From Bacteroidales bacterium (GTDB lineage Bacteria > Bacteroidota > Bacteroidia > Bacteroidales > UBA4417): a DNA stretch of 64,000 bases. Shown in pieces: positions 4,654-23,293 of this stretch. The notes below the pieces were generated by a model that was not told where the DNA came from, did no database searches, and saw only the letters and a list, made by a program, of their open reading frames with translations. Position 1 is the first letter of the stretch. Every line of letters starts with the position of its first letter. Made by a program: the position numbers and the translations under genes. The stretch covers positions 30,199 through 94,198 of the forward strand of contig JBBRYZ010000001.1 in the NCBI GenBank assembly GCA_038237165.1, given 5' to 3'.

Positions 4654-4878
4654 ATGAATGAGGATAACAAAAGTAGCAGTAATCATGATCTGCAGGATCA
4701 TATTGAACCTGAACACAATAATTCACCAAAGTGGAAACGAGTACATCATACCTGGTGGTTCTGGATTTTCCTGATTTTAATGCTGGGTGGCATTCTCTAT
4801 TACGTAATAACTGTCGACTTTGCGTTTGCGCCTCACAAGCAAATGGAACAACCATCGGGTACTAACAGAACACCTTAG
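4654..4878 (+). CDS. Small single-TM membrane protein (paralog of 13865..14086)
   Basis: 74-aa ORF with one TM helix (WWFWIFLILMLGGILYYVI). About 60% identical to the 73-aa ORF at 13865..14086, which supports both being real genes. Confidence 0.6.
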   Translation: MNEDNKSSSNHDLQDHIEPEHNNSPKWKRVHHTWWFWIFLILMLGGILYYVITVDFAFAPHKQMEQPSGTNRTP

Positions 4879-5719: not shown

Positions 5720-8263
5720 ATGGATAAGAAAACACCAATAAACAATCCCAATTACGATAATTTGCCAACTGATGTGGATGGGTTTGATTTGCTTGCCGAA
5801 CTTGCATTGGATATGCGCAGTTCATGGAATCATGCCGCTGATGAATTATGGCAACAACTCGATTCGGAACTATGGAAACTCACGCATAACCCCTGGATTG
5901 TCCTTCAATCAGTTTCGAGGGATCGCCTTGAAATGTTGCTGGCAGATTCAACTTTTCGTAAAAAATTGAATGAAAGAGTTCATACCCGGAAACATGCTAT
6001 TGAGAGTCCCGGATGGTTTCAGCAAAAGTACCCCAAATCGCCTCTTACCTGCATTGCTTATTTCAGCATGGAATATATGTTAAGCGAAGCCTTGCCTATT
6101 TATTCCGGTGGCCTGGGCAATGTAGCCGGTGATCAGCTTAAAGCCGCCGGCGACCTTGGTGTGCCGGTAATTGGCATCGGGTTGCTTTACCAGCAAGGCT
6201 ATTTCCGCCAGGTAATTGACAAGGATGGAAATCAATTAGAGCTTTATCCTTATAATGATCCCGGACAGTTGCCCATAACGCCGTTACGTCATAAAAACGG
6301 AGAGTGGCTACGACTCGAAATAGCATTGCCCGGATACTCAGTTTGGCTGCGTGCATGGCAGGTACAGGTAGGCAGGCTTAAGCTTTACCTGCTCGATAGT
6401 AATGATGCGGCTAACTTACCTGCCCATCGTGGTATTACAAGCGAACTATATGGTGGCGGCCATGAACTACGGCTTAAGCAGGAACTGGTTCTCGCACTGG
6501 GCGGATGGCGTTTGCTTGCTGCTCTGGGTATACGACCGGAAGTATGCCATTTAAATGAAGGACACGCAGCTTTTGCCGTCTTGGAACGGGCACGAACCTA
6601 TATGGAAGAAACCGGATTGTCCTTTAACGAAGCCCTGATGGTTACCCGTGCAGGAAATATTTTCACAACCCACACAGCCGTTGCTGCTGGTTTTGATCTT
6701 TTCTCGCCCTTCCTTATTGAACATTATCTTGGAGACTATGCTAAAAAGCTTGGCATTTCAATTTCCGATCTTTTAGCGTTAGGCCGCTTAAATCCTGATG
6801 ACCCGAATGAGAGTTTCAACATGGCCTACCTGGCAATCAGGGGCAGTGGAGCAGTAAATGGAGTAAGTCGTCTGCATGGAAAAGTAAGCCGGCACATTTT
6901 TTCGCCACTTTTTTCACGTTGGCCTGAAGATGAAGTACCGGTAGGTCATATTACAAACGGAGTACATATGTCATCATGGGATTCCGCAGAAACAGATGAT
7001 CTGTGGACGAAGGTTTGTGGAAAAGGCCGTTGGCTGGGAAAAGCCGAAACAGCAGAACAAGATATCCGCAGTGTTCCTGACGGCAAACTTTGGAAAGTCA
7101 GGACAAAAGCCAGCGCTTCTTTTGTAAAATACATTCGCGAGCGCCTCGCTCAGCAATTGTCTATTTCCGGTACATCAACCAATTTTTCAAACGATGTTGA
7201 ACAAATATTCAACCCGAATGCGTTAACACTGGGATTTGCGCGACGCTTTGCCAGTTATAAAAGGCCCAATCTGTTATTATACGACAAACAGAGGCTACAA
7301 CGCATATTAACAAATACACAATTTCCCGTTCAGCTTATTATTGCAGGCAAGGCTCATCCCGGCGATGGTGAAGGGCACGCAATGATTAAGGAATGGATAC
7401 AATTTATTCATCAGCCAGAGATCAGGCCTCATGTCATCTTTCTAAGTGACTATGATATGCTTTTAACGGAACATCTGGTGCAAGGTGTTGATGTATGGAT
7501 CAATACTCCCCGCCGACCATGGGAAGCCAGCGGAACGAGTGGCATGAAAGTGCTGGTAAACGGTGGACTCAATCTATCCGAACTGGATGGTTGGTGGTCC
7601 GAAGCCTATACGCCTGAAGTGGGCTGGGCGCTGGGAGATGGAAACGAACACGGTGACGATCCGGCCTGGGATGCCATGGAAGCGGAACAACTTTACAATT
7701 TACTCGAACAGCAGGTGGTGCCTGAATTTTACAAACGAAATGAAAAAGGAATCCCCGTTACCTGGATATCACGAATGAGGGAAAGCATGGCGCAATTGAC
7801 ACCGCGGTTCTCAGCCGACAGAGCCGTTCGCCAATATACCGAGCAACACTATCTGCCAGCAGCAAAAGCATTTATTGATCGCGCTGCCGGCAAAAGTGCA
7901 TTGGGGAAGCAAATGGTTAATTGGCAGCAAGTGTTGGAGCAGAAATGGAACACATTACATTTTGGAGAAGTGAAGGTTAACACGCAAGATGGTAAACATA
8001 TATTTGATGTCCAGGTATATACATCTGATATAGACCCAAATATGCTTAGTGTAGAACTTTACGCTGATGGAATTAACGGCAGCGAAAAGGTGGCCCAGAA
8101 AATGAAGCTGGGACTAAAGCTGGATGTATCCGTTAAAGGCTACCATTACAGTGTAATAATATTGGCAACCCGACCTGCCAAAGACTTTACGGCAAGAATA
8201 TTGCCAAATTTCCCGGGAGTATCAGTTCCACTCGAATTGGATCTTATTCTCTGGCAGCATTAG
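5720..8263 (+). CDS. glgP: Alpha-glucan (glycogen/maltodextrin) phosphorylase, GT35, long GlgP-type
   Basis: 847-aa ORF. It has motifs typical of alpha-glucan family phosphorylases: YFSMEYMLSEALPIYSGGLGNVAGD, NGVSRLHG, the EASGTSGMK PLP-lysine region and a C-terminal DUF3417-like tail. Confidence 0.9.
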   Translation: MDKKTPINNPNYDNLPTDVDGFDLLAELALDMRSSWNHAADELWQQLDSELWKLTHNPWIVLQSVSRDRLEMLLADSTFRKKLNERVHTRKHAIESPGWFQQKYPKSPLTCIAYFSMEYMLSEALPIYSGGLGNVAGDQLKAAGDLGVPVIGIGLLYQQGYFRQVIDKDGNQLELYPYNDPGQLPITPLRHKNGEWLRLEIALPGYSVWLRAWQVQVGRLKLYLLDSNDAANLPAHRGITSELYGGGHELRLKQELVLALGGWRLLAALGIRPEVCHLNEGHAAFAVLERARTYMEETGLSFNEALMVTRAGNIFTTHTAVAAGFDLFSPFLIEHYLGDYAKKLGISISDLLALGRLNPDDPNESFNMAYLAIRGSGAVNGVSRLHGKVSRHIFSPLFSRWPEDEVPVGHITNGVHMSSWDSAETDDLWTKVCGKGRWLGKAETAEQDIRSVPDGKLWKVRTKASASFVKYIRERLAQQLSISGTSTNFSNDVEQIFNPNALTLGFARRFASYKRPNLLLYDKQRLQRILTNTQFPVQLIIAGKAHPGDGEGHAMIKEWIQFIHQPEIRPHVIFLSDYDMLLTEHLVQGVDVWINTPRRPWEASGTSGMKVLVNGGLNLSELDGWWSEAYTPEVGWALGDGNEHGDDPAWDAMEAEQLYNLLEQQVVPEFYKRNEKGIPVTWISRMRESMAQLTPRFSADRAVRQYTEQHYLPAAKAFIDRAAGKSALGKQMVNWQQVLEQKWNTLHFGEVKVNTQDGKHIFDVQVYTSDIDPNMLSVELYADGINGSEKVAQKMKLGLKLDVSVKGYHYSVIILATRPAKDFTARILPNFPGVSVPLELDLILWQH

Positions 8264-8346
8264 TTTTTAAACAATGTGAAATATAAATCCAAATCAAGAT
8301 TATAAAATTGGAATGATGTGGTTTGTGTCGTATTAAGTTAATACCA

Positions 8347-8820
8347 ATGAAGACAACAAATTCAATCACTTGCCTGTTTCTGGATATCGGTGGCGTTCTG
8401 CTCTCCGACGGTTGGGATCATAATGCCCGCAAACGGGCTGCCACGAAATTCAATCTGGAAGTGTCCGAAATGGAGACCCGACATCATCTGATTTTCGATA
8501 CTTACGAGGAAGGAAAGGTCACGATGGATGAATATTTAGATATAGTGGTTTCGTACAAAGAAAGGTCTTTCACCAGGCCTGAATTTCGGAGTTTTTTGTT
8601 TGCACAAACGGAACCCCTCTCCGATATCGATATCTTTCGTTTGGCGCTTAACGCAGCTCATGTGCCCACAGAGCAGGCTGTTTATATCGATGACCTGCCA
8701 TTGTATGTGCAAGTTGCAGAAGGCTTGGGTATTCGCGGCATTCATCATACCGATTACAAGTCAACCCTCACACAGCTGACATCTTTCGGTTTACTCCATA
8801 ACGAGAGGGTCGTCCCATGA
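8347..8820 (+). CDS. HAD-family hydrolase, apparently carrying an internal in-frame deletion (possibly inactive)
   Basis: Motif I-like FLDIGGVLL and motif IV YIDD are present. Only ~30 aa lie between the cap region and motif IV, where motif II (S/T) and motif III (K) would be expected. The ATG at 8347 is preferred over the TTG at 8323. Confidence 0.6.
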   Translation: MKTTNSITCLFLDIGGVLLSDGWDHNARKRAATKFNLEVSEMETRHHLIFDTYEEGKVTMDEYLDIVVSYKERSFTRPEFRSFLFAQTEPLSDIDIFRLALNAAHVPTEQAVYIDDLPLYVQVAEGLGIRGIHHTDYKSTLTQLTSFGLLHNERVVP

Positions 8821-10007
8821 AACACATTAAGTCATATATTCTAACCATCAACGGCGGTTCGTCCAGCATCAAATTTGCGATTTACAAAGCAAGTAAGCCA
8901 CTAAAAAAAACACTTTACGGCAAAATTAACCGTATTGGTTCACCGGATACGACGCTGACTTTTAATGACCAAACTAAGAATAAACAGCAAAGCATAAATT
9001 TAGAAGCTTCGGATCATAAGGCAGCGGTAAATTTCCTGATTGACTGGCTTGAAGGGCAGCACGATTTTAATTCCATCAGCGCCATCGGACACAGAGTTGT
9101 TCATGGCATGAAACACATGGAGCCGGAGATTATCACCAAAAAATTGTTGGATGAACTGCATCGGTTTGAAATTTACGATCCGGATCATTTGCCTGCTGAG
9201 ATTGAACTGATCAAGGGATTTCTTCAGCGATATCCGAAACTAAAACAGGTTGCCTGCTTCGATACAGCGTTTCACAGCACCATGCCCCGAATTGCAAAAA
9301 TAGTGCCCATTCCGCGACATTACGAAAATAAAGGCGTTCAGCGATATGGCTTCCATGGTTTATCCTATGCTTATCTGATGGAAGAACTCGCTCGTTTGGA
9401 AGACACTAAGGTTGCGAATGGCCGTGTCATTCTTGCTCACCTTGGCAGTGGAGCAAGCATGGCAGCAGTACTTAACGGACAAAGTATCGATACAACAATG
9501 GCTTTTACCCCCGCTTCAGGTCTGATGATGAGCACCCGTTCCGGTGATGTTGATCCCGGTCTGATTTCTTTTTTAGCCCGAAGCGAGAATATGACCACCT
9601 TACAATTTGACAAAATGGTGAACCATAAATCTGGATTGTTGGGAGTATCAGAAGCCAGTTCCGACATGCACGACTTATTAAGAAAGGAAGAAGAAGATAT
9701 TAGAGCTGCTGAGGCTGTGGAATTGTTTTGTTACCAGGCAAAGAAACAGATTGGCGCTTATGCCGCTGCATTAGGTGGACTCGACATATTGATATTTGCC
9801 GGAGGTATTGGCGAAAATGCTCCGGAAATACGATCAAGGATTTGCAAAGGCTTGGAATTTCTTGGAATCGAACTTGAAGAAAAGCGAAATAGGACAAACT
9901 CCCCGATAATTTCTACAAATAAAGAAAAGGCTGTCGTTAGGGTCATTCATACTGATGAGGAATGGATGATTGCCAAAACAGTAAGTAAAATGTTAAAAAT
10001 TAATTAA
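8817..10007 (+). CDS. ackA: Acetate kinase
   Basis: 396-aa ORF with N-terminal ILTINGGSSSIKF, GHRVVHG, FDTAFH and YGFHGLSY motifs. Its start overlaps the upstream stop (ATGA). Confidence 0.92.
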   Translation: MKHIKSYILTINGGSSSIKFAIYKASKPLKKTLYGKINRIGSPDTTLTFNDQTKNKQQSINLEASDHKAAVNFLIDWLEGQHDFNSISAIGHRVVHGMKHMEPEIITKKLLDELHRFEIYDPDHLPAEIELIKGFLQRYPKLKQVACFDTAFHSTMPRIAKIVPIPRHYENKGVQRYGFHGLSYAYLMEELARLEDTKVANGRVILAHLGSGASMAAVLNGQSIDTTMAFTPASGLMMSTRSGDVDPGLISFLARSENMTTLQFDKMVNHKSGLLGVSEASSDMHDLLRKEEEDIRAAEAVELFCYQAKKQIGAYAAALGGLDILIFAGGIGENAPEIRSRICKGLEFLGIELEEKRNRTNSPIISTNKEKAVVRVIHTDEEWMIAKTVSKMLKIN

Positions 10008-10023
10008 TGAAAGGAAAACGATT

Positions 10024-10788
10024 ATGTTAATCAAAGCAAAAACATTAAAAGGCTATAAATTAGATACTGAAGATGGCGAAATAGGTAATGTTAAAGAATT
10101 CTATTTCGACGACAAGCACTGGGCAATTCGCTATCTGGTTGTCGACACAGCAAACTGGCTCACTGGCAGAAGAGTATTGATTTCACCCTATGCATTGGCT
10201 TCTGTAAATCAGGAAGCAAAAAACATCGGCATTAGTTTGAGTAAAAAACAGATCGAGGGCAGTCCATCTCTGGAAAGCGACAGACCCGTATCAAAACAAT
10301 TTGAAACGGCTTACAATGGGTATTATGGATGGCCGGAATATTGGAGCGGCGCATACATGTGGGGGCCTTATACTTTTTTAAAGCGCGACAGCAAAGAATG
10401 GAAGGAACTAAAACACCAAGAGGAATCATGGAATCCCCATTTGCGCAGCACCAATGATGTGATTGGCCACAATATTCAAGCTAGCAATGGCGAAATAGGT
10501 CATGTAGAGGACTTTATAATTGATGATGAAACCTGGGCAATTCGTTATCTGATTATAGATACTAAAAACTGGTGGGGCGGAAAGAAAGTCTTGGTTTCGC
10601 CTCAATGGATTGATCATGTTAGTTGGGAAGAAATGAAAGTGTTCGTGAATCTTTCCCGTGAGAGTATTAAGCAGTCACCGGAATATTCAGAGGAGTTTCT
10701 GCTAACCCGCGATTTTGAGACCGATTTGCATCAACATTACAATCGCAAGGGATATTGGGTCGATGAATCTGCTGCTCATAAGCTTTAA
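10024..10788 (+). CDS. Tandem PRC-barrel domain protein
   Basis: Two copies of the DGEIG.V.DF..DD..WAIRYL..DT motif typical of PRC-barrel domains. Confidence 0.7.
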   Translation: MLIKAKTLKGYKLDTEDGEIGNVKEFYFDDKHWAIRYLVVDTANWLTGRRVLISPYALASVNQEAKNIGISLSKKQIEGSPSLESDRPVSKQFETAYNGYYGWPEYWSGAYMWGPYTFLKRDSKEWKELKHQEESWNPHLRSTNDVIGHNIQASNGEIGHVEDFIIDDETWAIRYLIIDTKNWWGGKKVLVSPQWIDHVSWEEMKVFVNLSRESIKQSPEYSEEFLLTRDFETDLHQHYNRKGYWVDESAAHKL

Positions 10789-10872
10789 CTATGAAGCAAA
10801 TATGAGAAAGAGTTTTCTCACCCAATTGACTTATTAAAACCCAGCATAAAAATAACAAGAAAGGAATCAATC

Positions 10873-13257
10873 ATGAATAATATAGTATTGTCATCAGAAG
10901 AATTGAGGAAAACAAATGCATATTGGCGCGCTGCCAATTATCTGTCAGTCGGGCAGTTATACCTCTGTGAAAATCCTTTGCTTAAAGTAACCCTGAAACT
11001 TTCGCATGTAAAATCGATGTTACTCGGTCATTGGGGAACCACACCGGGACAGAACTTTATATATGTGCATCTGAATCGGGTGATTAAGAAGTATGATCTG
11101 AATATGTTTTACGTTGCCGGCCCAGGTCATGGTGGACCTGCAATTGTTGGTAATGTTTACCTCGAAGGAACCTGGAGCGAGGTTTATCCGGACATTACAC
11201 AGGATGAAGCCGGATTGAAAAAGTTGTTCAAGCAATTTTCGTTTCCGGGCGGTATTTCCAGTCATGTTGCGCCCACAACTCCGGGCTCTATCCATGAGGG
11301 CGGCGAGTTAGGATATTCGCTCAGCCATGCCTTTGGAGCAGCGTTCGATAATCCTGATTTGGTTGTTGCTTGCGTTGTTGGCGATGGCGAAGCCGAAACC
11401 GGCCCACTGGCAACTGCATGGCATTCCAACAAATTTCTTAGTCCGATTACTGACGGTGCCGTATTGCCAATTCTGCACCTGAATGGTTACAAAATAGCTA
11501 ACCCAACAATACTGGCACGTATCGAACCTGAAGAACTGGATCAATTTTTACGGGGATGTGGCTGGACACCGTATTATGTGGAAGGTGATGATCCCGAAAA
11601 AATGCATCAACTTATGGCTTCCGTAATGGAAAAAACCATCGAGGAAATCAAACGCATACAGAAGAAAGCGAGAAACAACAATGATACCACCCGCCCACGC
11701 TGGCCCATGATCGTATTGAAATCGCCCAAAGGATGGACAGGACCTAAAGTAATTGATGGATTACAAATTGAAGGTACTTTTCGTTCCCATCAGATTCCAC
11801 TGTCAGTAGATGCTGAACATCCCGAACATCTGAAACTTCTTGAAAACTGGATGAAAAGCTATAAGGCTGAAGAACTTTTTGATAATAACGGACGCCTAGT
11901 ACCCGAACTGGCTGAACTGGCACCAAAAGGAGAGCGAAGAATGGGTGCTAATCCAAATACCAACGGCGGGTTAATGTTGCATGATTTGATTATGCCGGAT
12001 TTTCGAAAATATTCAGTTGACGTACCCTCGCCAGGATCCGTTGAGGCCTCCGATACACATATGCTTGGGGAGTTCCTGAGGGATGTGGATAACCTCAATA
12101 AGGAACAGAGAAATTTCCGGATCTTTGGTCCTGATGAAACGCTGTCTAACCGGTTGAATTGTGTTTTTGAAACTACCAACCGGCAATGGGAAGCCCGTAC
12201 TCAAGAGTACGATGAGTTTCTTGCCACCGATGGCAGGGTAATGGAAATGTTGAGCGAACACCAATGCGAAGGCTGGCTCGAAGGATATCTGCTCACCGGA
12301 AGACACGGCTTGTTTAATTGCTACGAGGCTTTTATTCACATCGTCGATTCAATGTTCAACCAACATGCCAAATGGTTAAAAGTGACTGGCGAGTTGCCCT
12401 GGCGAAAAAAAATAGCATCGCTCAATTACCTGCTCGCTTCTCACGTTTGGCAGCAGGCACATAACGGATTCACCCATCAGGATCCTGGTTTCATTGGTCA
12501 TGTGGTAAACAAAAAGGCTTCTATTGTTCGCGTTTACCTGCCACCCGATGCCAATTGTTTGTTATCGGTTTGGGATCATTGCTTGAGGAGCCGTCATTAC
12601 GTCAACGTAGTGATTGCAGGCAAATATCAGGCTCCTCAATGGCTCACCATGGATGAAGCGATTGAACATTGTAAGCAGGGAATCGGCATATGGGAATGGG
12701 CTGGAACCGATAAAGGGATAGAACCGGATGTAGTAATGGCATGCTGTGGCGATGTGCCAACGCTCGAAACTCTGGCAGCTGTTTCCATTCTTCGTGAGCA
12801 TCTTCCAGATTTAAAAATCCGTGTGGTTAATGTGGTGGATTTGATGAAACTGGAACCCGATACGGAACACCCGCATGGGTTGAGCGAAAAAGATTTCGAT
12901 GCGTTATTCACGAAAGATAAACCAATTGTATTTGCTTTCCATGGCTACCCGTGGCTGATTCATCGCCTGACATACAGACGTACCAACCACGTAAACATGC
13001 ATGTAAGGGGTTATAAAGAAGAAGGTACCATTACAACTTACTTCGACATGACGGTTTTAAATGATCTGGATAGGTTTCACCTGGTGCAGGATGTAGTTGA
13101 TCGTTTGCCGCACTTGGGCGCAAGCGGTGCCAAACTGAAAAAGCTGGTTCAACAGAAACTCATCGAACACAAAAAGTATATAGACAAAAACGGTGAAGAT
13201 ATGCCGGAAATCCTGAATTGGAAATGGAGTAACCCAGAAATGAAAGTACATGTTTAA
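10873..13257 (+). CDS. xfp: Xylulose-5-P/fructose-6-P phosphoketolase
   Basis: 794-aa ORF. N-terminal [25 protein letters not shown], the [12 protein letters not shown] signature and [11 protein letters not shown] (TPP binding) are all phosphoketolase hallmarks. Confidence 0.95.
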
Positions 13258-13296
13258 TTCCGTCGTATCTTATTTAAAACAATTAAAATCAGTATA

Positions 13297-13725
13297 ATGA
13301 AAATTAATCTTAGAATTTTGATAAAGATTATAGCAATAATCATAGTTGGATTTTGGTTTGCCGGCTGTAAGGATAATTCAAAAATAGTGCCTGAGGCAGA
13401 ATATGCGACAAAAATCATCGGGCGCTGGCAAGGTACAATAGATTCTTCGAAAGAAACCATGTCTTTAAACCCTGATAGTACTTTCGTTTGTAAAATACAT
13501 CCTATGGGGTTTCTGGCCAATACTCTTTCTCAAAACCGACCAGGCTCGGTGAGTGGAAAATGGAAAATTGCAGATGCAATTATTTCCATGACAATCACTG
13601 ATTCGCAAAACGAACATTTGGGGAACAGCAATGCTTCAAGTACGATTATATCGTTCAGGGAAAACGAACTTACACTAAAATCCGAGCGTAATGAAATCTC
13701 TAAATTCAGACGATTGGCTAATTAG
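13297..13725 (+). CDS. Hypothetical lipoprotein
   Basis: 142-aa ORF with a signal peptide and FAGC lipobox. No family recognised. Confidence 0.5.
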   Translation: MKINLRILIKIIAIIIVGFWFAGCKDNSKIVPEAEYATKIIGRWQGTIDSSKETMSLNPDSTFVCKIHPMGFLANTLSQNRPGSVSGKWKIADAIISMTITDSQNEHLGNSNASSTIISFRENELTLKSERNEISKFRRLAN

Positions 13726-13864
13726 TACTTTGTAATCAGGAGTGATTAAACATAGCATTTCTTAAGTTTAAAAAAATAAAAAATGATTCAAATAAAAGTT
13801 GTAACAAATAAGAACACTGAAAAAGCAAAATCAACTCTGAATTTTAAAAGTAAAGACCCGCCTC

Positions 13865-14086
13865 ATGAATAAGAATAAACAAAGTAGCCGTAATCCTGAT
13901 CTTCAGGATCAGCCGGTTCAGCCGGAGCATTTACCCATGTGGAAACGGGTGCATCATAACTGGTTCTTCTGGATTTTTTTGATTTTAATGCTGGGTTGCA
14001 TCCTATTTTACATCATGAGTATTGATTTTGCAACTTCACCTCACAAACCATTAAAACAACCAACGGAAAACAGCAGAACGCCTTAA
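13865..14086 (+). CDS. Small single-TM membrane protein (paralog of 4654..4878)
   Basis: 73-aa ORF collinear with and ~60% identical to the 74-aa ORF at 4654. Both have the same KRVHH.W.FWIFLILMLG core and the same NxRTP C-terminus. Confidence 0.6.
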   Translation: MNKNKQSSRNPDLQDQPVQPEHLPMWKRVHHNWFFWIFLILMLGCILFYIMSIDFATSPHKPLKQPTENSRTP

Positions 14087-14113
14087 ACAATCAAAAGTAA
14101 ATAAACATACAAA

Positions 14114-15142
14114 ATGAACACAAAACAGCTTATAAACACAGCAAAGGCAATGGTTGCAGGCGATAAAGGCCTGTTGGCTATGGATGAAAGCAATCCCACC
14201 TGCAATAAAAGGTTTGCAGCCCTGGGAATACCGCAAACCGAAGACTTCCGGCGCGCGTACAGAGAGATGATTGTAACCACTCCCGGTCTCAGCGAGTGTA
14301 TTAGTGGAGCTATTCTTTATGATGAAACAATCCGCCAGCAACTAAAGGATGGAACTCCTTTTATTAAAGCCGTCACTGATGCCGGAATCATACCTGGCAT
14401 TAAAGTAGATGCAGGAGCAAAAGAAATGAAAAGTCATCCCGGTGAGAAACTAACCAAAGGTCTGGACGGATTGCGTGAACGCCTGGATGAATATGCTCAG
14501 ATGGGGCTCCGTTTTGCCAAGTGGCGGGCTGTGATAACTATAGGCGATGGCCTTCCAAGCATGGATTGTATTGAGGCAAACGCAGATGCGCTGGCAAGCT
14601 ATGCCAAACTCTGCCAGGAAGCCGGACTAGTTCCCATCGTTGAGCCGGAAGTGCTTATGGATGGAGAACATTCTCTTTCCGAATGCCGCAATGTAACAGA
14701 GGATGTTCTGCGGATTGTTTTTAATCATCTTTACACAAAAGGGGTGGTATTAGAAGGCATGATACTGAAGCCAAACATGGTGCTCCCTGGTTTGAACTGT
14801 AAAAAGCAGGAATCTGTTGAAGAGGTAGCTGATGCAACCGTAAATTGCCTGATGCGAATAGTACCCGCAGAAGTTACAGGGATTGCATTCCTATCCGGAG
14901 GCCAATCTGCGGAATTGGCTTCAGCCCGTTTAAATGCGATGAATATGAAGTTTAAGCCTCAACTGCCCTGGGCACTTTCGTTTTCTTTTGCCCGTGCTAT
15001 ACAGCAACCGGCTTTGGAAATCTGGAATGGTCAGGAAGCAAACGTATTAAAAGCACAGGAGGCACTGCTTCATCGTGCCAAATGCAATCAGTCTGCACGT
15101 CGTGGTGAATATAAAATAGAAATGGAAAGGAAAACAATATGA
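14114..15142 (+). CDS. fba: Class I fructose-bisphosphate aldolase
   Basis: 342-aa ORF. GLLAMDES, ILYDETI, GIKVD and the LEGMILKPNMV Schiff-base lysine region are typical of class I (eukaryote-like) FBA. Confidence 0.9.
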   Translation: MNTKQLINTAKAMVAGDKGLLAMDESNPTCNKRFAALGIPQTEDFRRAYREMIVTTPGLSECISGAILYDETIRQQLKDGTPFIKAVTDAGIIPGIKVDAGAKEMKSHPGEKLTKGLDGLRERLDEYAQMGLRFAKWRAVITIGDGLPSMDCIEANADALASYAKLCQEAGLVPIVEPEVLMDGEHSLSECRNVTEDVLRIVFNHLYTKGVVLEGMILKPNMVLPGLNCKKQESVEEVADATVNCLMRIVPAEVTGIAFLSGGQSAELASARLNAMNMKFKPQLPWALSFSFARAIQQPALEIWNGQEANVLKAQEALLHRAKCNQSARRGEYKIEMERKTI

Positions 15143-16167
15143 CAAACAAGGAACTAAACCCGGATCAAATAGCTTTATACCCTTTACTCTTCGAACCAAT
15201 TTATCAATATCGGCCCTGGGGTGGCCGACACTTGTCCAAATTGCTTAAAAAGCCATTGCCTGGAGAAGGGCCAATAGGCGAAGCATGGTTATTGAGTGAT
15301 CGCGATGACTTTCAGAGCAGTGTTGCGAATGGACCTTTAAAAGGGCAAACCATAAGGCAATTGCTCACGGAATCAAAGGAACATCTCCTGGGTAAATTTG
15401 TGAGAGATTTCGATCGTTTCCCGCTTTTACTGAAATTTCTTGATGCACGTGAAATGCTTTCGGTGCAGGTACATCCATCAGAATCAAATGCTGACCTGCT
15501 ACCAGCGGGAGAAACAGCCAAATCTGAAGCCTGGGTAGTGATTGAAGCGGGGAACAATAGCCGTATCTATGCCGGCTTGAAACCAGGTACTACAAAAGAA
15601 AACATAAAAATTGCACTTTCTGACGGTACAGTGGAGCAGCACCTTGCAAGCTTCATTCCCCAAAAGGGTGATGGCATCTTCATTCCGGCCGGCACGGTTC
15701 ACGCCCTGGGTGGTGATGTGGTAGTTTTCGAAATTCAACAGAACAGCGATGTAACTTTCCGCCTGTACGACTGGAACCATATTGACGCCAGGACAGGCCA
15801 TCCTAGGGAGCTTCAGATCGATAAAGCACTTGAATGCATTGATTTTAAACAAGGTCCAATTAGTCCTGTAATTCCGCAACTCGAAGATATGATGCCTGCC
15901 AGGCGGGAAATGCTTTTTAAATGCGAGCATTTTGGTTTGTGGCGGGTTGAGGCTGAATCAATGTTTATTGCCGGGGTTACAGAAACTCCCCGCATCCTGA
16001 TGTGCTTAACAGGCAAGGGTCAAGTTGAACATGAAGGGATCAGTTATCCAATCAGGAAAGGTGATGTTATGCTTTTGCCAGCCGTTGTCGGCGCCTGTTT
16101 CTGTAAACCGGAAGGTGCCATTAGTTTACTGGAGATTTCCTTGCCTGAAAACAAAAGTATCATGTAA
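15139..16167 (+). CDS. manA: Type I phosphomannose isomerase (mannose-6-phosphate isomerase)
   Basis: PWGG, GEAWLLSD, FPLLLKFLDA...LSVQVHP and GTVHALG cupin motifs. The start overlaps the fba stop. Confidence 0.85.
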   Translation: MTNKELNPDQIALYPLLFEPIYQYRPWGGRHLSKLLKKPLPGEGPIGEAWLLSDRDDFQSSVANGPLKGQTIRQLLTESKEHLLGKFVRDFDRFPLLLKFLDAREMLSVQVHPSESNADLLPAGETAKSEAWVVIEAGNNSRIYAGLKPGTTKENIKIALSDGTVEQHLASFIPQKGDGIFIPAGTVHALGGDVVVFEIQQNSDVTFRLYDWNHIDARTGHPRELQIDKALECIDFKQGPISPVIPQLEDMMPARREMLFKCEHFGLWRVEAESMFIAGVTETPRILMCLTGKGQVEHEGISYPIRKGDVMLLPAVVGACFCKPEGAISLLEISLPENKSIM

Positions 16168-16288
16168 TAGATATGATCGGTAATCACTAACCCATACCTG
16201 TTGCAGGCTGGGGAAAAGATAGTATAGAAACTAAAGTATCTGCAACAAAATTGCAGGGCTTTAACCATTAAACAGAAAATAATAACTC

Positions 16289-17071
16289 ATGAAAAGACTC
16301 ATCGTTTTTGATCTGGATGGCACACTTGCCGAAAGTAAATCATCTCTTGACAAGGAAATGGCATCATTGCTAAATAAACTTCTCTGTGTTGTAAAAGTAG
16401 CAGTTATTTCAGGTGGCGGTTGGCAACAGTTTGAAAAGCAACTACTCTCCAATCTCTCGCAAGACAATAGCTTGGAAAACCTATCCCTGCTACCTACCTG
16501 TGGGACTAAATTTTATAGGTACACAGGCAATTGGGAAAAAATATACTCGGAAGATTTCACCGATATGGAAAAAAAGAAAATCATTGATTCTCTTAAGAAA
16601 GTAATTGAAGAGGTAGGTTTCAAGATCGAAAAGGTTTGGGGAGAAGTTATTGAGGATCGTGGAAGCCAGATAACATTTTCAGCATTGGGCCAGCAAGCAC
16701 CTCTTGATGAAAAGAAAAAATGGGATCCTGATTTTACAAAACGAAAGAAGATGAAGGAGAGCCTTGATAAGCTTATTCCTGAATTTTCGGTGCGCCTGGG
16801 AGGTACCACCTCTGTTGACATCACCAAACCTGGCATTGACAAGGCTTATGGAATCAGAAAGCTCCGCGACACCCTTGGAATTGAAATAGATGAAATGATT
16901 TTTATCGGTGATGCAATATTTCCCGGAGGAAACGACTATCCTGCGAAAGAAGCAGGCGTTTTATCAATAAAAGTGAGAGATCCGAATGAATCGAAGCGGG
17001 TGATTGAAGCAATAGTGGCCTGTTTGGATGGAGTTTACAAACCAGAAGTTATAAAGGAGGTAAAACGATGA
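16289..17071 (+). CDS. HAD-IIB hydrolase, eukaryote-type phosphomannomutase-like
   Basis: FDLDGTLA motif I, a VISGG segment, and KxxG...GD...GGNDY motifs III/IV. Overall HAD-IIB (PMM/Cof-like) architecture. Confidence 0.7.
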   Translation: MKRLIVFDLDGTLAESKSSLDKEMASLLNKLLCVVKVAVISGGGWQQFEKQLLSNLSQDNSLENLSLLPTCGTKFYRYTGNWEKIYSEDFTDMEKKKIIDSLKKVIEEVGFKIEKVWGEVIEDRGSQITFSALGQQAPLDEKKKWDPDFTKRKKMKESLDKLIPEFSVRLGGTTSVDITKPGIDKAYGIRKLRDTLGIEIDEMIFIGDAIFPGGNDYPAKEAGVLSIKVRDPNESKRVIEAIVACLDGVYKPEVIKEVKR

Positions 17072-18180: not shown

Positions 18181-18221
18181 TTGATCAAATTAAATATTCA
18201 CACAAGATTAAAAATAAGAAT

Positions 18222-18587
18222 ATGATAAAAGTAATTAATGATCTTCCGGATAATGTTCTGGGATTTTCTGCAATCGGAAAAATTACTGGAGCAGATTACG
18301 AATCAATTGTGATACCTGCTTTGGACGAAAAATTGAAAACACATAATAAAATCCGGATGCTATACCAATTGGGAACCGATTTTTCCGGTTTTGATATGGG
18401 AGCAATGCTGGACGACGCAAAAATGGGAATGAAGAATTTATCGGCATGGGACCGTATCGCATTGGTTTCGGATCATGAGATGATCAATTCTTTTGCAAAA
18501 TTCTTTGGTTACCTGATAACCTGTGAACTCCGGATTTATAAGAATTCTGAGCATGAACAGGCAAAAGAATGGATTTCGGAAAAATGA
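18222..18587 (+). CDS. STAS/SpoIIAA-like (DUF3478) domain protein
   Basis: 121-aa ORF with a pattern typical of SpoIIAA-like STAS/SEC14 small proteins (AIGKITGADYE..., RIALVSD). Confidence 0.55.
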   Translation: MIKVINDLPDNVLGFSAIGKITGADYESIVIPALDEKLKTHNKIRMLYQLGTDFSGFDMGAMLDDAKMGMKNLSAWDRIALVSDHEMINSFAKFFGYLITCELRIYKNSEHEQAKEWISEK

Positions 18588-18655
18588 GCTTAATTATTAC
18601 TTTGAGATCCTTGTGATACCTGGAAGGCTAAGTACATAACAATGAGCAATAAGGA

Positions 18656-21181
18656 ATGAAAATGAAAACAAATTCAAAGGTTGCGGAACCGGAACCCAAA
18701 GATAAGCCCAACGGGAAAGATGATTTAAAATCCTTACCACTGGCCGAATTGCAGAAAAAACTGGAATCGTCATCTGAAGGTCTTACTGAGGCAGAAGCAA
18801 AGAAAAGACTTACCCATTATGGTCCAAATGAGATTGAGGAAAAGAAAACCAATATGCTCCTGAAATTCCTCTCTTATTTCTGGGGTCCTATTCCCTGGAT
18901 GATCGAAGCGGCTGTAATCCTTTCGGCAGTTGCCAAGCATTGGCCCGATTTTTTCATCATCCTTGTTCTCCTCCTGGCTAACGCTATGGTTGGCTTTTTT
19001 GAAGAACGCGAAGCTGGAAATGCCATCGAGGCCCTCAAGGCACAACTGGCAGTGAAAGCACGTGTAAAACGCGATGGAAAGTGGATTACTCCCGAATCGT
19101 GTGAGCTTGTACCCGGCGATGTTATTCGCCTGAGGCTCGGCGATATTATACCTGCTGATGCCCGTCTGCTCGACGGTGATCCGGTTGAAGTGGATCAGTC
19201 GGCACTGACAGGTGAATCATTGCCTGCCGAACGCAAGTCAGGAGAAGCTGTATTTTCAGGTTCCATTATCCGACGCGGTGAAATAGACGCTTTTGTATAT
19301 GCCACAGGCACAAACACCTACTTCGGTAAAACAGCACAACTGGTTCAGGATGCAAAAACCGTCAGTCATTTTCAAAAAGCTGTTTTGAAGATCGGAAATT
19401 ACCTTATCATTCTGGCAGTGGCCTTAGTGGCGGTAATTATTACTGTCGCGATTATACGCGGAGATGCGATCCTCACAACTTTGCAATTCGCATTGGTACT
19501 CACTGTAGCCGCAATTCCTGTAGCGATGCCAACCGTGCTGTCGGTTACGATGGCTGTAGGAGCGCGCGTGCTGGCAAAGAAAAAGGCGATTGTAAGCAAG
19601 TTGGTGGCTATTGAGGAATTAGCCGGCGTGGACGTTCTGTGCGCCGACAAAACCGGGACCCTGACCCAGAACAAGTTAACGTTGGGTGATCCGTTCTGCA
19701 TAGAAAATATTTCGGCTGATCAGGTTATTCTTGATGGCGCTTTAGCTTCCCGCGCCGAAAATAACGATACCATCGACCTGGCTGTGTTGGATGGACTTAA
19801 AGATAAGGATGCCCTAAAGAAATATAAAATTCTTCATTTCCTGCCCTTCGATCCGGTGCATAAACGTACCGAAGCCACAGTTATGGGTGAGGACGGTAAA
19901 GAGTTCAAAGTAACTAAAGGCGCACCTCAGGTTATTTTGGAATTGTCGTCCAATTCCGGAAAGGTAAAAGCCGAAGTTGATAAAGCAGTTAACGAATTCG
20001 CATCACGCGGCTTTCGTTCGCTGGGAGTGGCAAAAGATGATGGAGATGGCAAATGGCAGTTTCTTGGTGTATTGCCTTTATTTGATCCACCAAGGGAAGA
20101 TGCAAAAGCAACCATTGCAACCGCACTTGCGATGGGAGTAAAAATTAAAATGGTTACGGGTGATGCACTCGCCATCGCGAAAGAAACTGCCAAAAAGCTT
20201 GACATGGGTTCAAATATACTCGATGCCGCCAGCCTCGGAGATTCAAAGAAGACGGAAACAGATGCTGTTGCCGATTCTATCGAAAAAGCCGATGGCTTCG
20301 CACAGGTTTTCCCTGAACACAAATTCCACATTGTGGATGTCTTGCAAAAACATGGCCACATCGTTGGAATGACTGGCGACGGAGTGAACGATGCCCCTGC
20401 CCTGAAAAAAGCTGACTGCGGTATCGCCGTTTCTGACGCTACAGATGCAGCCCGTGCCGCAGCATCCATCGTGCTGATGACTTCCGGTCTTTCGGTGATT
20501 ATTGACGCCATTAAGGAAAGTCGTCGTATTTTCCAAAGAATGAACAGCTATGCTATATACCGGATTGCAGAAACTTTGCGCGTGTTATTGTTTATGACTT
20601 TATCAATTCTCGTGTTTAATTTTTATCCGGTTACCGCTGTCATGATCGTGATGTTGGCATTACTGAATGATGGCGCCATACTGTCTATTGCGTATGATAA
20701 TGTTCATTATAAAAACCAGCCTGAAGCATGGAATATGCGAATGGTGCTGGGAATCTCGACAGTGTTGGGCGTAATTGGTGTAGTGGCCGCGTTTGGCTTG
20801 TTTTTTCTCGGCGAACGTGTCTTTCATATCGACCGCGCACATATACAGACACTGATGTATTTGAAACTTTCTGTTGCCGGCCATCTTACAATATTTCTTA
20901 CCCGCACACGCGGTCCTTTCTGGTCCATCAAACCAGCCAGGATTTTATGGATAGCCGTTCTCGGAACGCAAATCGTTGCAACGTTAATAGCAGTTTATGG
21001 TTTTTTTATGACGCCATTGGGCTGGGGTTGGGCAGGCTTCGTTTGGGGATATGCTTTAATTTGGTTTCTTTTGAACGACCGTATAAAATTACTGGCTTAT
21101 GAGCTTTTTGATCCTGTTAAAAAAAATTCTAACCCCGGAAATTTACCTGAGTCCAAATCTGAAGACAAAACACAGTCTTAA
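18656..21181 (+). CDS. P3-type (plasma-membrane-type) H+-translocating P-type ATPase
   Basis: 841-aa ORF with TGES, CADKTGTLTQN (phosphorylation site), MVTGD and GDGVNDAPALKKAD. Overall P3A organisation. It ends at a TAA (21179-21181) that lies inside a repeat unit (see findings). Confidence 0.88.
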   Translation: MKMKTNSKVAEPEPKDKPNGKDDLKSLPLAELQKKLESSSEGLTEAEAKKRLTHYGPNEIEEKKTNMLLKFLSYFWGPIPWMIEAAVILSAVAKHWPDFFIILVLLLANAMVGFFEEREAGNAIEALKAQLAVKARVKRDGKWITPESCELVPGDVIRLRLGDIIPADARLLDGDPVEVDQSALTGESLPAERKSGEAVFSGSIIRRGEIDAFVYATGTNTYFGKTAQLVQDAKTVSHFQKAVLKIGNYLIILAVALVAVIITVAIIRGDAILTTLQFALVLTVAAIPVAMPTVLSVTMAVGARVLAKKKAIVSKLVAIEELAGVDVLCADKTGTLTQNKLTLGDPFCIENISADQVILDGALASRAENNDTIDLAVLDGLKDKDALKKYKILHFLPFDPVHKRTEATVMGEDGKEFKVTKGAPQVILELSSNSGKVKAEVDKAVNEFASRGFRSLGVAKDDGDGKWQFLGVLPLFDPPREDAKATIATALAMGVKIKMVTGDALAIAKETAKKLDMGSNILDAASLGDSKKTETDAVADSIEKADGFAQVFPEHKFHIVDVLQKHGHIVGMTGDGVNDAPALKKADCGIAVSDATDAARAAASIVLMTSGLSVIIDAIKESRRIFQRMNSYAIYRIAETLRVLLFMTLSILVFNFYPVTAVMIVMLALLNDGAILSIAYDNVHYKNQPEAWNMRMVLGISTVLGVIGVVAAFGLFFLGERVFHIDRAHIQTLMYLKLSVAGHLTIFLTRTRGPFWSIKPARILWIAVLGTQIVATLIAVYGFFMTPLGWGWAGFVWGYALIWFLLNDRIKLLAYELFDPVKKNSNPGNLPESKSEDKTQS

Positions 21182-21892
21182 ACTGTAGATAAAGCAGATA
21201 TTAAGCCCGAAGCAAAATCTGAGACACCGCCTGATTCCGATAGCAAACCGGAAGATAAAACAGACAAGCCTGAGGGTAAAAAGGATGCTGAAACTAATGA
21301 TAAAAGAGAAACGAAACCTGAAACGAAATCTGAGACACCAGCTGATTCCGATAGCAAACCGGAATATAAAACAGACAAGCCTGAGGATAATAAGGATGCT
21401 GAAACTAATGATAAAAGAGAAACGAAACCTGAAACGAAATCTGAGACACCAGCTGATTCCGATAGCAAACCGGAAGATAAAACAGACAAGTCAGAGGATA
21501 AAAAGGATACTGAAACTAAAGATAAATCTGAAACGAAACCTGAAACGAAATCTGAGACACCATCTGATTTCGATATTAAACCTGGAGATAAAGCATACAA
21601 GTCTGAAGACAAAACAAAGAATAAAACTGAAGATAAAGCAGATACTAAGCCTGAAAGCAAACCCGAACCTTATACCAAAGTCAAAACTACAACAGATTTA
21701 ACCCCTGGTATGGTTAAGCGTGTCCATGAACTTTATGAGGAACTGGGGCGTAAGGATGTTCAGGCGGTTGAAGAATTGGAAAATGAGGAACGTGGTAATA
21801 GTGAAGATGAAGCCAAAACCGGACTTAAGCCTGATGCCAATGAAAAGCATGAAAAGGAAAAGGATATTCCGAAAGATAAGACTGATAAGTAA
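21182..21892 (+). other. Open in-frame continuation of the ATPase reading frame (237 codons, K/E/D/T/P-rich, then a helical acidic tail)
   Basis: I translated every codon from 21182 in the ATPase frame. There is no stop until the TAA at 21890-21892, and no ATG/GTG/TTG until the ATG at 21710. This is either a severed C-terminal tail, a read-through extension, or a small ORF 21710..21892. Confidence 0.6.
21206..21615 (+). repeat. 111-bp (37-codon) tandem repeat, ~3.7 copies
   Basis: Unit starts (ggatgctgaaactaat...) at 21283 and 21394, a diverged one at 21505, and a partial copy at 21206-21282. Copies 2 and 3 are nearly identical. Confidence 0.9.
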
Positions 21893-21947
21893 ATCCAATC
21901 AATTCATTGACAATTAATCATTCACACCAATAATATAACAACTGGTT

Positions 21948-22796
21948 ATGAACTACACGAAAAAATTCCTTATAAAACCAGAAAGCCATGTTCAGCTCAA
22001 GGATTTTGATCCGGGCTATGATGGCAAACACGAAAAGAAAAAATCAGCCATTCAGAAGTTGGAGAAACTTCAAAATCAGATGGTTGAACTGCAATACAAG
22101 CTTTTTGTTGAACATAAACAGTCATTGTTAATAATACTTCAGGCTCTTAATGCCGGTGGCAAGGATGGTGTCGTGCGGCATGTTATAAGCTCAATGAACC
22201 CGCAAGGTTGCCGCGTAATTAGCTTTAAGCAACCAATACCTGAGGAACTCGATCATGATTTTTTGTGGCGGATTGAAAGCCAGGTTCCAAAGCCCGGGGA
22301 AGTCGTTATTTTTAACCGGTCACAATACGAAGATGTACTTATTGCCCGTGTTCACAACCTTGTTCCTAAAGCAGTTTGGTCAAAGCGCTACGAAATGATC
22401 AATGAATTCGAGCAAAAGCTTGTGGCTAATGGCACCCATATTTTAAAATTCTTCCTTCACATCAGCAAGGAGGAACAGCTCGATCGCTTTAAAAAGCGAC
22501 TTGATGATCCGTCAAAACAGTGGAAAATAAGTGAAGCAGACTATTCGGAAAGGAAATATTGGGCTGAATATGAATCGGCATACGAGGATGTACTTAATAA
22601 ATGCAGCGCCAATGATTCTCCCTGGTTTATCATTCCCTCCGATCATAAATGGTTCCGCGACCTTGCAATAGCGCAAATCATTGTAAAAACAATGGAAAAA
22701 TTAAACATTGAGCTACCGGAACCGACCGTAAATATCGCCGACATCCGGAAAAAATATCATGAAACTGCCGTAAAGAATAAAAAAGCAAAAAAATAA
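21948..22796 (+). CDS. ppk2: Polyphosphate kinase 2 (PPK2) family protein
   Basis: 282-aa ORF with a Walker-A-like ALNAGGKDG, FNRSQYEDV and the lid region typical of single-domain PPK2. Confidence 0.85.
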   Translation: MNYTKKFLIKPESHVQLKDFDPGYDGKHEKKKSAIQKLEKLQNQMVELQYKLFVEHKQSLLIILQALNAGGKDGVVRHVISSMNPQGCRVISFKQPIPEELDHDFLWRIESQVPKPGEVVIFNRSQYEDVLIARVHNLVPKAVWSKRYEMINEFEQKLVANGTHILKFFLHISKEEQLDRFKKRLDDPSKQWKISEADYSERKYWAEYESAYEDVLNKCSANDSPWFIIPSDHKWFRDLAIAQIIVKTMEKLNIELPEPTVNIADIRKKYHETAVKNKKAKK

Positions 22797-22819
22797 GAAA
22801 TGTGAATATAAGAAGTGAA

Positions 22820-23293
22820 CTATTTATATCCCTTATTACTTTCAAGGATTGATTTAGCTTTACTTATATCCTCTTGATTTCCATGAACAATGACCTTAAA
22901 ACCTTTTTCCTCAATATGTTCACGGTATTTTAACACTGTCCTTGTTTTGATTAGGAAAATAGCAATGAGACTAATAATACCTCCACCTGCAATGCCAAAA
23001 GAAAACCCGGCTATTGCGCCTATCCCGGCACCTACTCCGAAAAGAAATCCCAGTCCGGGAATTTCAAATAGTTTCGCCCCGGTGAGCATTCCCATAATTG
23101 GTCCAAGGATAGCTCCAATAATTGCCGGAACATTCTTTATCCAACTATTACTTTTTGAACGCATCAAGTCATCAATGATAGCCGCTTTCCCAATAAGGGA
23201 AAGCTGTTGAACCGGGAAGCCAGCGCGTTTTAGCGCTTCAACTACTTCGATTGCTTTCTCGTGGGTATCGTATACCCCTATCGTTGCATTCAT
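22820..23293 (-). CDS. General-stress-type protein (GSP17M/YflT-like domain) with glycine-zipper membrane segment
   Basis: The N-terminal GVYDTHEKAIEVVEALKRAGF...LSLIGK resembles the YflT/GSP17M-like domain. The central G-rich hydrophobic region (GAILGPIMGMLTGA...GVGAGIGAIAG) looks like a glycine zipper. Confidence 0.55.
   Translation of the reverse strand: MNATIGVYDTHEKAIEVVEALKRAGFPVQQLSLIGKAAIIDDLMRSKSNSWIKNVPAIIGAILGPIMGMLTGAKLFEIPGLGFLFGVGAGIGAIAGFSFGIAGGGIISLIAIFLIKTRTVLKYREHIEEKGFKVIVHGNQEDISKAKSILESNKGYK

Follow-up and report, generated by a model that had tools for sequence, protein, structure and literature searches.

A gene block joining phosphorolysis, phosphoketolase, acetate kinase and a proton pump in a Bacteroidales genome, and its relatives across phyla and on plasmids

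The window analysed here is the whole 64,000-nucleotide stretch G000:C1:30199-94198 of a Bacteroidales metagenome-assembled genome (MAG; 276 contigs, 89% complete). It carries a one-directional block of about 17 kb in which genes for an alpha-glucan phosphorylase (GlgP), acetate kinase (AckA), phosphoketolase (Xfp), a class I fructose-bisphosphate aldolase (FBA1), a GH130 phosphorylase-like enzyme, a P3A-type H+-ATPase and a polyphosphate kinase (PPK2) lie together with accessory genes. Its genes reappear in conserved order in many phyla and, in variants, on plasmids, the block is an add-on in this genome, and its phosphoketolase carries a complete ATP-regulatory motif. We consider it probable that the block is a horizontally spread, self-contained cassette leading from reserves to acetyl phosphate, from there to ATP, and from ATP to an ion pump. 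A sequence-only reading of the window had singled out the fixed co-location of these genes as the notable feature, and had held that this view would fail if synteny in relatives did not reach beyond ackA-xfp and the block was not co-expressed. Conservation reaches far beyond that pair and, because gene order is conserved across phyla, the co-location is not a product of chance.

Gene order across phyla and carriage on plasmids

We searched 185,579 species genomes using the aldolase as anchor and retained the top 80 loci, each with flanks of 10 kb. These nearest aldolase loci (69-80% identity) come from at least 10 phyla, namely Verrucomicrobiota, Planctomycetota, Acidobacteriota, Nitrospirota, Cyanobacteriota, Chloroflexota, Myxococcota, Thermodesulfobacteriota, Pseudomonadota and Bacteroidota, and most of them are MAGs of peat, fen and soil. 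tblastn with the window's proteins and clustering of open reading frames (ORFs) revealed a recurring order: GlgP-(GlgX)-HAD-AckA-(PRC)-Xfp-(RpiB or a small membrane protein)-FBA1 in the 5' part, then either ManA-HAD-IIB-GH130, PGI, Tpi or a histidine phosphatase, then a P3A ATPase or an N-ATPase, and then PPK2. Zwf, Gnd, Tal, Tkt, PGM, Usp, CLC, GH65 and slipin are looser members. Where at least 8 kb was available on both sides (45 loci), Xfp was found in 32, AckA in 25, HAD in 23, the P3A pump in 22, GlgP in 18 (orthologues of 60-70% identity), PPK2 in 14 and the N-ATPase in 7. Less than 4 kb separates the end of Xfp from the downstream aldolase in 34 of 55 loci; in 16 the two genes abut. Identity between proteins of the cassette is 60-85% across Acidobacteriota, Verrucomicrobiota, Planctomycetota, Cyanobacteriota and others. 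One Acidobacteriaceae locus (L063) has the window's whole gene set in the same order, its enzymes, pump and PRC protein being 41-82% identical to the window's and the two small accessory proteins 27-34%. Searches of a literature library found no description of this cassette.

Where an ATP-driven pump was found downstream of the aldolase, it was one of two kinds. In the 55 loci with a downstream flank, we observed the P3A pump 24 times, the N-ATPase 10 times and both together in none; the N-ATPase operons in this slot carry AtpR and AtpQ. Two species of a single Bacteroidota genus share the same string of Xfp, FBA1, small membrane protein and PGI, followed by a P3A pump in one and an N-ATPase in the other. 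Since the two pumps swap in the same slot, the constant feature is an ATP-driven ion pump placed after ATP-making genes. The N-ATPase operon, which Dibrova et al. are said to have described in 2010, reportedly runs atpDCQRBEFAG; it is absent from the window, and it encodes a rotary enzyme that moves many ions per ATP, unlike the P-type pump, which moves one.

Cassette-type pumps were also found on plasmids of cultured bacteria, at 73-79% identity. Plasmid NZ_CP046101 of Rhodococcus sp. AQ5-07 carries slipin-Xfp-FBA1-pump-GH65 with Usp genes nearby, and that of Frondihabitans carries slipin-GH65-Xfp-FBA1-histidine phosphatase-pump-beta-PGM-PRC, and Usp genes are present on that plasmid as well. 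A conjugative plasmid of Sphingomonas paeninsulae holds ManA, AckA, slipin, HAD-IIB, GH130, Tpi, PRC, the pump, PPK2, Tal and RpiA, and a Caballeronia plasmid has DUF3141-FabI-Pta-AckA-pump-PPK2 beside integrases, a CLC gene and a general stress protein. The plasmid neighbours are thus of the cassette's kind. The entry module varies, and every variant is phosphorolytic, being GlgP, or GH65 with beta-PGM, or GH130 with a mutase and ManA. The source of acetyl phosphate varies too (Xfp or Pta); AckA, the pump and PPK2 stay.

Conservation of synteny, which the sequence-only reading had proposed to look for in Bacteroidota, thus holds across phyla and on plasmids but not within the Bacteroidota genomes sampled. 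In a phylum sample of 301 genomes, the window's own included, 14 have a TIGR01647 pump and 50 have Xfp. Beyond the window's genome, the two are linked in one alone of the 300 others (G301). Another genome (G225) has a high-scoring pump and no Xfp, and one family (f38) holds most of the pumps and most of the Xfp genes, unlinked. Among 24 other species sampled from the genus, Xfp was found in one (G015, at 90% identity); among 16 other families of the order, it was found in two. An Xfp tree (FastTree, with local supports only) groups the Bacteroidota copies into a single clade, in which the window and G015 are sisters, whereas copies of Acidobacteriota, Verrucomicrobiota, Planctomycetota, Cyanobacteriota and others intermingle on short branches. 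The host itself is placed in Bacteroidota by a TamL lipoprotein at window positions 43036-45393. The GC content of the block is 43.5% against a genome mean of 40.5% (standard deviation 1.3), and divergent second copies of GlgP, AckA, ManA and PPK2 lie elsewhere in the genome, the second GlgP adjoining glycogen synthase on contig C15. The class I aldolase is likewise an extra copy, in addition to two class II aldolase-family genes elsewhere. The cassette is therefore an add-on in this genome. Comparison with five congeners for an empty site found only the DUF389 gene of the upstream flank to be shared, leaving the insertion point undefinable.

The cassette of the congener G015 also holds a transaldolase gene, a CheB-like gene and a membrane-protein gene which the window's genome lacks at this place; they correspond to a CheB-like methylesterase fragment, a 446-aa membrane protein and transaldolase (L001 4145-6184 and 6808-7923). 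On the Sphingomonas plasmid, too, a gene annotated as CheB comes after the cassette. Recent transfer between the two congeners was considered, as their cassette enzymes are about 90% identical versus 77-83% for two chromosomal proteins. It is not needed, since cassette enzymes are about 80% identical even across phyla. Cassette-like Zwf (73% identity) and Gnd (65%) genes are found on contig C56 of the window's genome.

Predicted activities of the encoded proteins

An ORF check of the window placed 14 plus-strand ORFs between 5720 and 22796 and one convergent ORF at 22820-23293 (Table 1). All 15 genes of the sequence-only reading were found at the coordinates and on the strands it gave, and Pfam and NCBIfam bore out its family calls. 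Four-nucleotide stop/start overlaps join HAD to AckA, FBA to ManA and HAD-IIB to GH130.

Table 1. Features of the block and of the positions immediately upstream, in window coordinates
Feature	Position	Strand	Basis
Paralogue of the 73-aa membrane protein, 59% identity	4654..4875	+	tblastn of own genome; no Pfam family
Small lipoprotein-like ORF	5203..5493	+	no homologue in related loci
Alpha-glucan phosphorylase, GlgP/MalP type, with DUF3417	5720..8263	+	TIGR02094, 793 bits
HAD-like protein, 165-aa remnant	8323..8820	+	alignment with 25 orthologues
AckA	8817..10007	+	PF00871, E 2e-114
Two-PRC-barrel protein	10024..10788	+	Pfam; 65-70% identity across phyla
Xfp	10873..13257	+	XFP_N/XFP/XFP_C
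Lineage-specific lipoprotein, FAGC lipobox	13297..13725	+	locus comparison
73-aa membrane protein	13865..14086	+	recurs beside aldolase
Class I FBA	14114..15142	+	NF033379, 507 bits vs cut-off 250
ManA, type I mannose-6-phosphate isomerase	15139..16167	+	TIGR00218, 137 vs 116
HAD-IIB hexose-phosphate mutase, alpha-PGM/PMM type	16289..17071	+	structure-database match 4bnd
Divergent GH130 with phosphorylase-type residues	17068..18180	+	PF04041
SpoIIAA-like STAS protein	18222..18587	+	PF11964
P3A H+-ATPase, TAA stop at 21179-21181	18656..21181	+	TIGR01647, 1072 bits vs 615
Severed pump tail, 237 open codons in frame	21182..21892	+	frame reading, comparison with relatives
Class III-like PPK2	21948..22796	+	TIGR03709, 372 vs 247
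YflT/GSP17M-like stress protein, convergent with PPK2	22820..23293	-	PF11181

The phosphoketolase is full length in its three domains (PF09364, E 4e-181; PF03894, E 3e-87; PF09363, E 8e-99). SeXPK of Synechococcus elongatus is inhibited by ATP through eight residues at the dimer interface, and a Methylomonas Xpk with the same eight-residue motif behaves like it (Lu et al. 2023, PMC10365998). The window's Xfp agrees at every one of these positions (P702, W703, H706, Y710, R711, H719, R721 and R753), as do 28 of 41 cassette Xfp sequences, most of the others differing at the Trp alone. The motif suggests a switch by which flux through Xfp would open as ATP falls. AckA is predicted to convert the resulting acetyl phosphate and ADP to acetate and ATP, and the class I aldolase matches PF00274 over its full length (E 1e-128).

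Upstream of this step, GlgP is predicted to release Glc-1-P from glycogen or maltodextrin with phosphate. HAD-IIB had been called phosphomannomutase (PMM)-like; the family holds, but its nearest solved structure is an alpha-phosphoglucomutase, that of Lactococcus (4bnd, E 4e-48 over residues 1-245), which is the enzyme of Neves et al. 2006. Eukaryotic PMMs are the next-best solved matches (E 1e-15), and alignment to 4bnd shows the DxDGT nucleophile motif kept as FDLDGT. The enzyme travels with ManA and GH130, the complete trio being found in 13 loci, so its substrate is probably Man-1-P. As there is no other mutase in the block, it may also convert the Glc-1-P made by GlgP and so serve the glycogen branch. 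GH130 is divergent: its best solved match is a 1,2-beta-oligomannan phosphorylase (E 2e-22), and all its NCBIfam equivalog scores fall far under their cut-offs. It has K-I-G-G-G and L-Y-H-G-V, as in the phosphorylases 9fj8, 7fip and 4udg; at those two positions E-C-G and Y-N-G-K are seen in 4onz and 3taw, which are putative hydrolases. The basic residue before G-x-G-P-P and the His of Y-H-G-V are presumably the phosphate binders of GH130 phosphorylases, and these residues suggest an enzyme of phosphorylase rather than hydrolase type. The earlier proposal of a route from phosphorolysis through Fru-6-P and acetyl phosphate to ATP is supported by these assignments.

The pump matches plant AHA2 at E 3e-219. 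Like AHA2 and Pma1, it scores above the TIGR01647 cut-off, has the DKTGT sequence and keeps the equivalents of AHA2 N106, R655 and D684 (alignment to 5ksd). Unlike them, it has no C-terminal autoinhibitory R domain of the plant or fungal kind, its ORF ending 30 residues past the last helix; relatives carry a DUF2934-type helix instead. The 766 bp at 21182-21947, which had been taken as a gap between genes, are not intergenic and contain the severed C-terminal tail of the pump. Read in frame, it belongs to the DUF2934-linked bacterial type, with the TAA separating it from the pump. It comprises a 111-bp tandem repeat at 21215-21614 (3.6 copies, 91% match, with a 37-residue K/E/D/P unit) followed by a helical end motif, TPGMVKRVHELYEELGRKD. 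Pumps of relatives (986-1238 aa) keep the tail fused as a K/P/E-rich linker plus DUF2934-type helix, one of them scoring for DUF2934 itself. The congener G015 has a Lys codon at the position of the TAA, and so does a later repeat unit of the window's own tail, which is why we take the stop at 21179-21181 to be one of three things, namely a point change, a polymorphism or an assembly error. The pump of this copy, as encoded, thus appears to have lost its regulatory tail. The tail of the G015 pump is without repeats and without the end helix. On the plasmids of Sphingomonas paeninsulae (L109 16001-18465) and Frondihabitans (L110 16001-18438), the pump gene aligns in two pieces and no protein is listed for it in the plasmid gene tables; it may be frameshifted there too.

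The best solved matches of PPK2 are 5lc9, 5o6k (E 1e-79) and 6an9/6au0, deposited as polyphosphate:AMP phosphotransferases, the title of 6au0 reading 'PPK3 Class III'; we take these to be class III enzymes of Meiothermus and Cytophaga. The window's protein is single-domain and, as in class III, its nearest enzymes are those that phosphorylate AMP and ADP.

Among the accessory proteins, the small HAD had been read as degenerate. It does belong to a HAD-like family, and this copy is broken: an in-frame deletion of about 55 residues has taken HAD motifs II and III, and the protein is probably inactive because of it. Motif I reads D-I-G-G throughout the family, motifs I-IV with the Asp+2 acid were not recovered as a set, and the nearest solved structure, 3cnh, is itself without an assigned function. 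A role as YihX-type glucose-1-phosphatase was considered on one weak NCBIfam hit and dropped, as a structure search gave it no support. Atlas look-ups for the HAD and PRC proteins returned their own families alone. The lipoprotein at 13297..13725 is 87% identical in G015 and 50% in L050, and was found in no other related locus. The 73-aa membrane protein stands beside the aldolase in 12 loci by ORF clustering and in 16 of 45 by tblastn, and its paralogue at 4654..4875 may mark the upstream edge of the cassette; membership of the ORF at 5203..5493 is uncertain. The STAS protein, 71% identical in L016, L029 and L030, is paired with the pump in the Bacteroidota and Ignavibacteria copies, and the YflT-like gene, found in 5-7 related loci, is loosely tied to the cassette.

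Proposed mechanism, known systems and alternative explanations

In the mechanism we favour, GlgP would free Glc-1-P from glycogen and GH130 would free Man-1-P from a beta-mannoside, and the HAD-IIB mutase, ManA and a chromosomal PGI would bring both sugars to Fru-6-P with no ATP spent. Xfp would be inhibited at high ATP; as ATP fell, it would turn sugar phosphates into acetyl phosphate, from which AckA would make ATP. The class I aldolase, together with chromosomal Tpi, Tal, Tkt, Rpi and FBPase, would recycle the co-products erythrose-4-P and triose-P, so that the route could run with zero net redox change. Class III PPK2 would add polyphosphate as a second source of ADP and ATP. The ATP would then be spent by a P-type pump at 1 H+/ATP, holding membrane potential and cytoplasmic pH when respiration fails. 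PGI, Tal, Tkt, RpiB, TIM, Pta and FBPase I were found elsewhere in the genome, and a class III FBPase was not. The genome also encodes two haem-copper oxidases (COX1), cytochrome bd, PPK1 and a GT5 glycogen synthase, and hence the host respires and can store both glycogen and polyphosphate. Anoxia, acid stress, starvation or drying are possible triggers. Expression as 'one regulon' in respiration-limited or dormant states, as the sequence-only reading has it, would be one candidate, and acid stress is no less plausible a trigger.

Among described systems, the lxa locus of Burkholderia cenocepacia comes nearest. It contains AckA, Pta, a cation-transporting ATPase and six universal stress proteins (USPs), is induced by low oxygen, and is what this aerobe needs in order to persist under anoxia (Sass et al. 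2013, PMC3721108). The lxa locus, the DosR regulon of Mycobacterium tuberculosis and the present block all group AckA, a cation-transporting P-type ATPase, reserve-polymer genes and stress proteins. Unlike in the block, lxa acetyl phosphate comes via Pta, there are Anr-type regulators, and the text of Sass et al. has no phosphoketolase, glycogen or polyphosphate and lists no class I aldolase or GH130 (PMC3721108). The Caballeronia plasmid variant described above (DUF3141-FabI-Pta-AckA-P3A pump-PPK2) links the two designs. No Usp gene lies in the window's block; Usp genes are found elsewhere in the genome on contigs C134 and C31, in 8 related loci and on the Rhodococcus and Frondihabitans plasmids. 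On C134 (L103 3728-4894) the Usp gene stands beside a YflT-like gene, and on C31 (L104 4518-15158) a PRC-barrel gene stands beside phosphofructokinase with Usp and a histidine kinase nearby.

Polyphosphate- and glycogen-accumulating wastewater organisms spend both reserves together in their anaerobic phase, for ATP and membrane potential. Those organisms take up acetate and use glycolysis and polyphosphate:AMP phosphotransferase with adenylate kinase, whereas the cassette is predicted to excrete acetate and uses phosphoketolase. The adjacency of Xfp and aldolase, with PGI, Tal, Tkt, RpiB, TIM and FBPase I elsewhere in the genome, recalls the bifid shunt and non-oxidative glycolysis. In the synthetic version of the latter, attributed to Bogorad et al. 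2013, Xfp together with aldolase, Tpi, Tal, Tkt, Rpi and a bisphosphatase reportedly yields up to 3 acetyl phosphates per hexose phosphate without redox change; the cycle is not known to operate in natural cells. Unlike that pathway, the block has no bisphosphatase, and some relatives have a histidine phosphatase or Tpi after the aldolase. We offer only tentatively the stronger proposal that the cassette is a natural, plasmid-shared non-oxidative glycolysis, in which an ATP-gated Xfp and a class I aldolase would give up to 3 acetyl phosphates per hexose of reserve sugar, needing no redox partner, and power a P3A or N-ATPase pump in respiration-less cells. If the aldolase does close a redox-neutral cycle, this would be the natural counterpart of a pathway so far known from metabolic engineering only. 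The comparison in any case puts P3A pumps and N-ATPases in one metabolic context, directly downstream of substrate-level ATP from reserves, and names cultured, plasmid-bearing carriers. If the stronger proposal is true, the long-unexplained bacterial P3A pumps and N-ATPases would gain a physiological role, and a cytoplasmic beta-mannoside reserve handled by GH130 would be implied. The cassette also suggests how aerobes of peat, soil and lichens may survive spells without respiration, and its phosphoketolase, predicted to be inhibited by ATP, would be a switch of its own.

Several points limit or weigh against the mechanism we favour. The sequence-only reading had proposed a search for a shared upstream motif; the block's intergenic regions, by themselves or together with the regions upstream of the Usp, YflT and PRC paralogues elsewhere, yielded A/T-rich shared words only and no promoter motif in common. 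Sigma-54 sites (TGGCAC-N5-TTGC, up to 2 mismatches) numbered 72 against 57 expected, none of them in the block's intergenic regions, and scans for sigma-70-type promoters and terminators stayed at chance level. Bacteroidota-type -7 boxes occur only at 5101 (TAACTTTG, ahead of the ORF at 5203..5493), 7999, 15393 and 18044, as mere consensus matches. Rfam at E 0.1 returned nothing, there are no tRNA genes in the window, and footprinting against G015 was uninformative, non-coding DNA being as conserved as coding DNA. Family scans of the block and its flanks found no regulator, and in an oxygen-limitation transcriptome of Methylacidiphilum, an organism without the cluster, xfp and ackA were not induced. 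Beyond regulation, the loci were picked by similarity to the aldolase and their frequencies describe this aldolase lineage, not bacteria at large. P-type pumps and N-ATPases differ greatly in ions per ATP, so that the same slot need not mean the same job. ATP inhibition of the window's Xfp is predicted from the motif alone, the substrate of GH130 is not fixed by sequence, and the HAD, PRC, STAS and small membrane proteins have as yet no assigned roles in the proposed mechanism. Finally, two parts are damaged here, and the cassette may be decaying in this copy.

Other explanations of the block were weighed against these data. An acid-stress module, in which protons are pumped out at 1 H+/ATP to keep cytoplasmic pH up in acidic peat or soil and the sugar genes supply ATP whatever the oxygen, would differ from our explanation in its trigger only. 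Most carriers are indeed MAGs of peat, fen and bog (SPRUCE, fen_, palsa_ and MFD titles), and the acidophile Acidiphilium cryptum has the pump on a plasmid (strain JF-5, pACRY01). CLC proteins are electrical shunts in the acid resistance of E. coli, and CLC exchangers are present in 6 aldolase-anchored loci and adjoin the pump in G301 as well as on the Caballeronia plasmid, near a YfdX protein and a basic amino acid/polyamine antiporter on the latter; on the window's own contig, about 7 kb separate GlgP from a CLC-CBS gene upstream. That CLC, however, is 39% identical to the cassette CLCs and stands outside the block, the acetate produced is harmful at low pH, the cyanobacterial, Antarctic-soil and lichen carriers are not from plainly acidic habitats, and the N-ATPases that replace the pump are usually held to be sodium pumps. 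We consider such a module unlikely as the main role of the block. The full SeXPK motif, and the presence of cyanobacterial L023 and L082 in the same Xfp clade, would also fit an ATP-sensitive overflow valve, Xfp draining sugar phosphates at low ATP and its neighbours tidying up the products, as proposed for SeXPK. There, the enzyme is read as a brake on the Calvin cycle; most carriers have no such cycle to brake, the host here is a heterotroph whose enzyme sits in a cassette with AckA, an aldolase and a pump, and a drain leaves the steady pairing with AckA, an ATP-driven pump and PPK2 unexplained, which makes this account improbable.

Taken by themselves, GlgP, GH130, ManA and the mutase form a coherent catabolic set, as would a growth operon for external alpha-glucans and beta-mannans resembling a polysaccharide utilisation locus. 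Family scans of the ORFs found no SusC/SusD, transporter or secreted glycanase in or beside the block, though, and the GH130 and GlgP ORFs as called have no signal peptide. In other carriers the same slot is filled by GH65 with beta-PGM or by PGI, and the pump, PPK2 and stress proteins would be out of place in such an operon, which we regard as quite improbable. Least of all do we believe that the genes are mere co-travelling cargo, neighbours through shared mobile DNA with no functional coupling. Plasmid and integrase contexts and a mosaic content that varies by locus are what cargo would show; against this, order, strand and translational coupling are kept across phyla, modules are exchanged for others of the same kind (three phosphorolytic entries, two pumps, Xfp or Pta), and window scans turned up neither a transposase or tRNA gene nor a repeat boundary adjoining the block.

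Other genes in and near the window

The CLC-CBS gene upstream of the block (L102 16858-19134, on the window's contig about 1 kb before the window start) encodes a 758-aa CLC chloride channel with CBS on the cassette strand, and heads a co-directional run of a CitMHS transporter, DUF389, MlaD and a small membrane protein. Within the window, minus-strand ORFs at 25962-29476 encode an MmeI/Eco57I-type restriction-modification enzyme in three overlapping pieces of 286, 556 and 372 aa. The second of these ORFs has an IS200-like Y1 transposase match, and the enzyme looks split or disrupted. At 34674-38510 (minus strand), consecutive genes encode a fused betaine-type ABC permease/binding protein, an EgtD-like histidine N-methyltransferase scoring 281 bits where the cut-off is 291, and a sulfurtransferase of the rhodanese type, a set which may concern ergothioneine-like thiol-histidine or compatible solutes. 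The minus-strand genes at 47224-55992 encode membrane subunits resembling those of hydrogenase-4 or Mrp antiporters, two of them HyfB-like and one HyfF-like, together with a 527-aa large subunit similar to NuoD, and may constitute a group-4 [NiFe] hydrogenase or a related ion-pumping complex; the congeners G019, G021 and G023 have this set at 78% identity. A plus-strand gene at 59762-60880 is GH18 chitinase-like, with a weak ChiD match.

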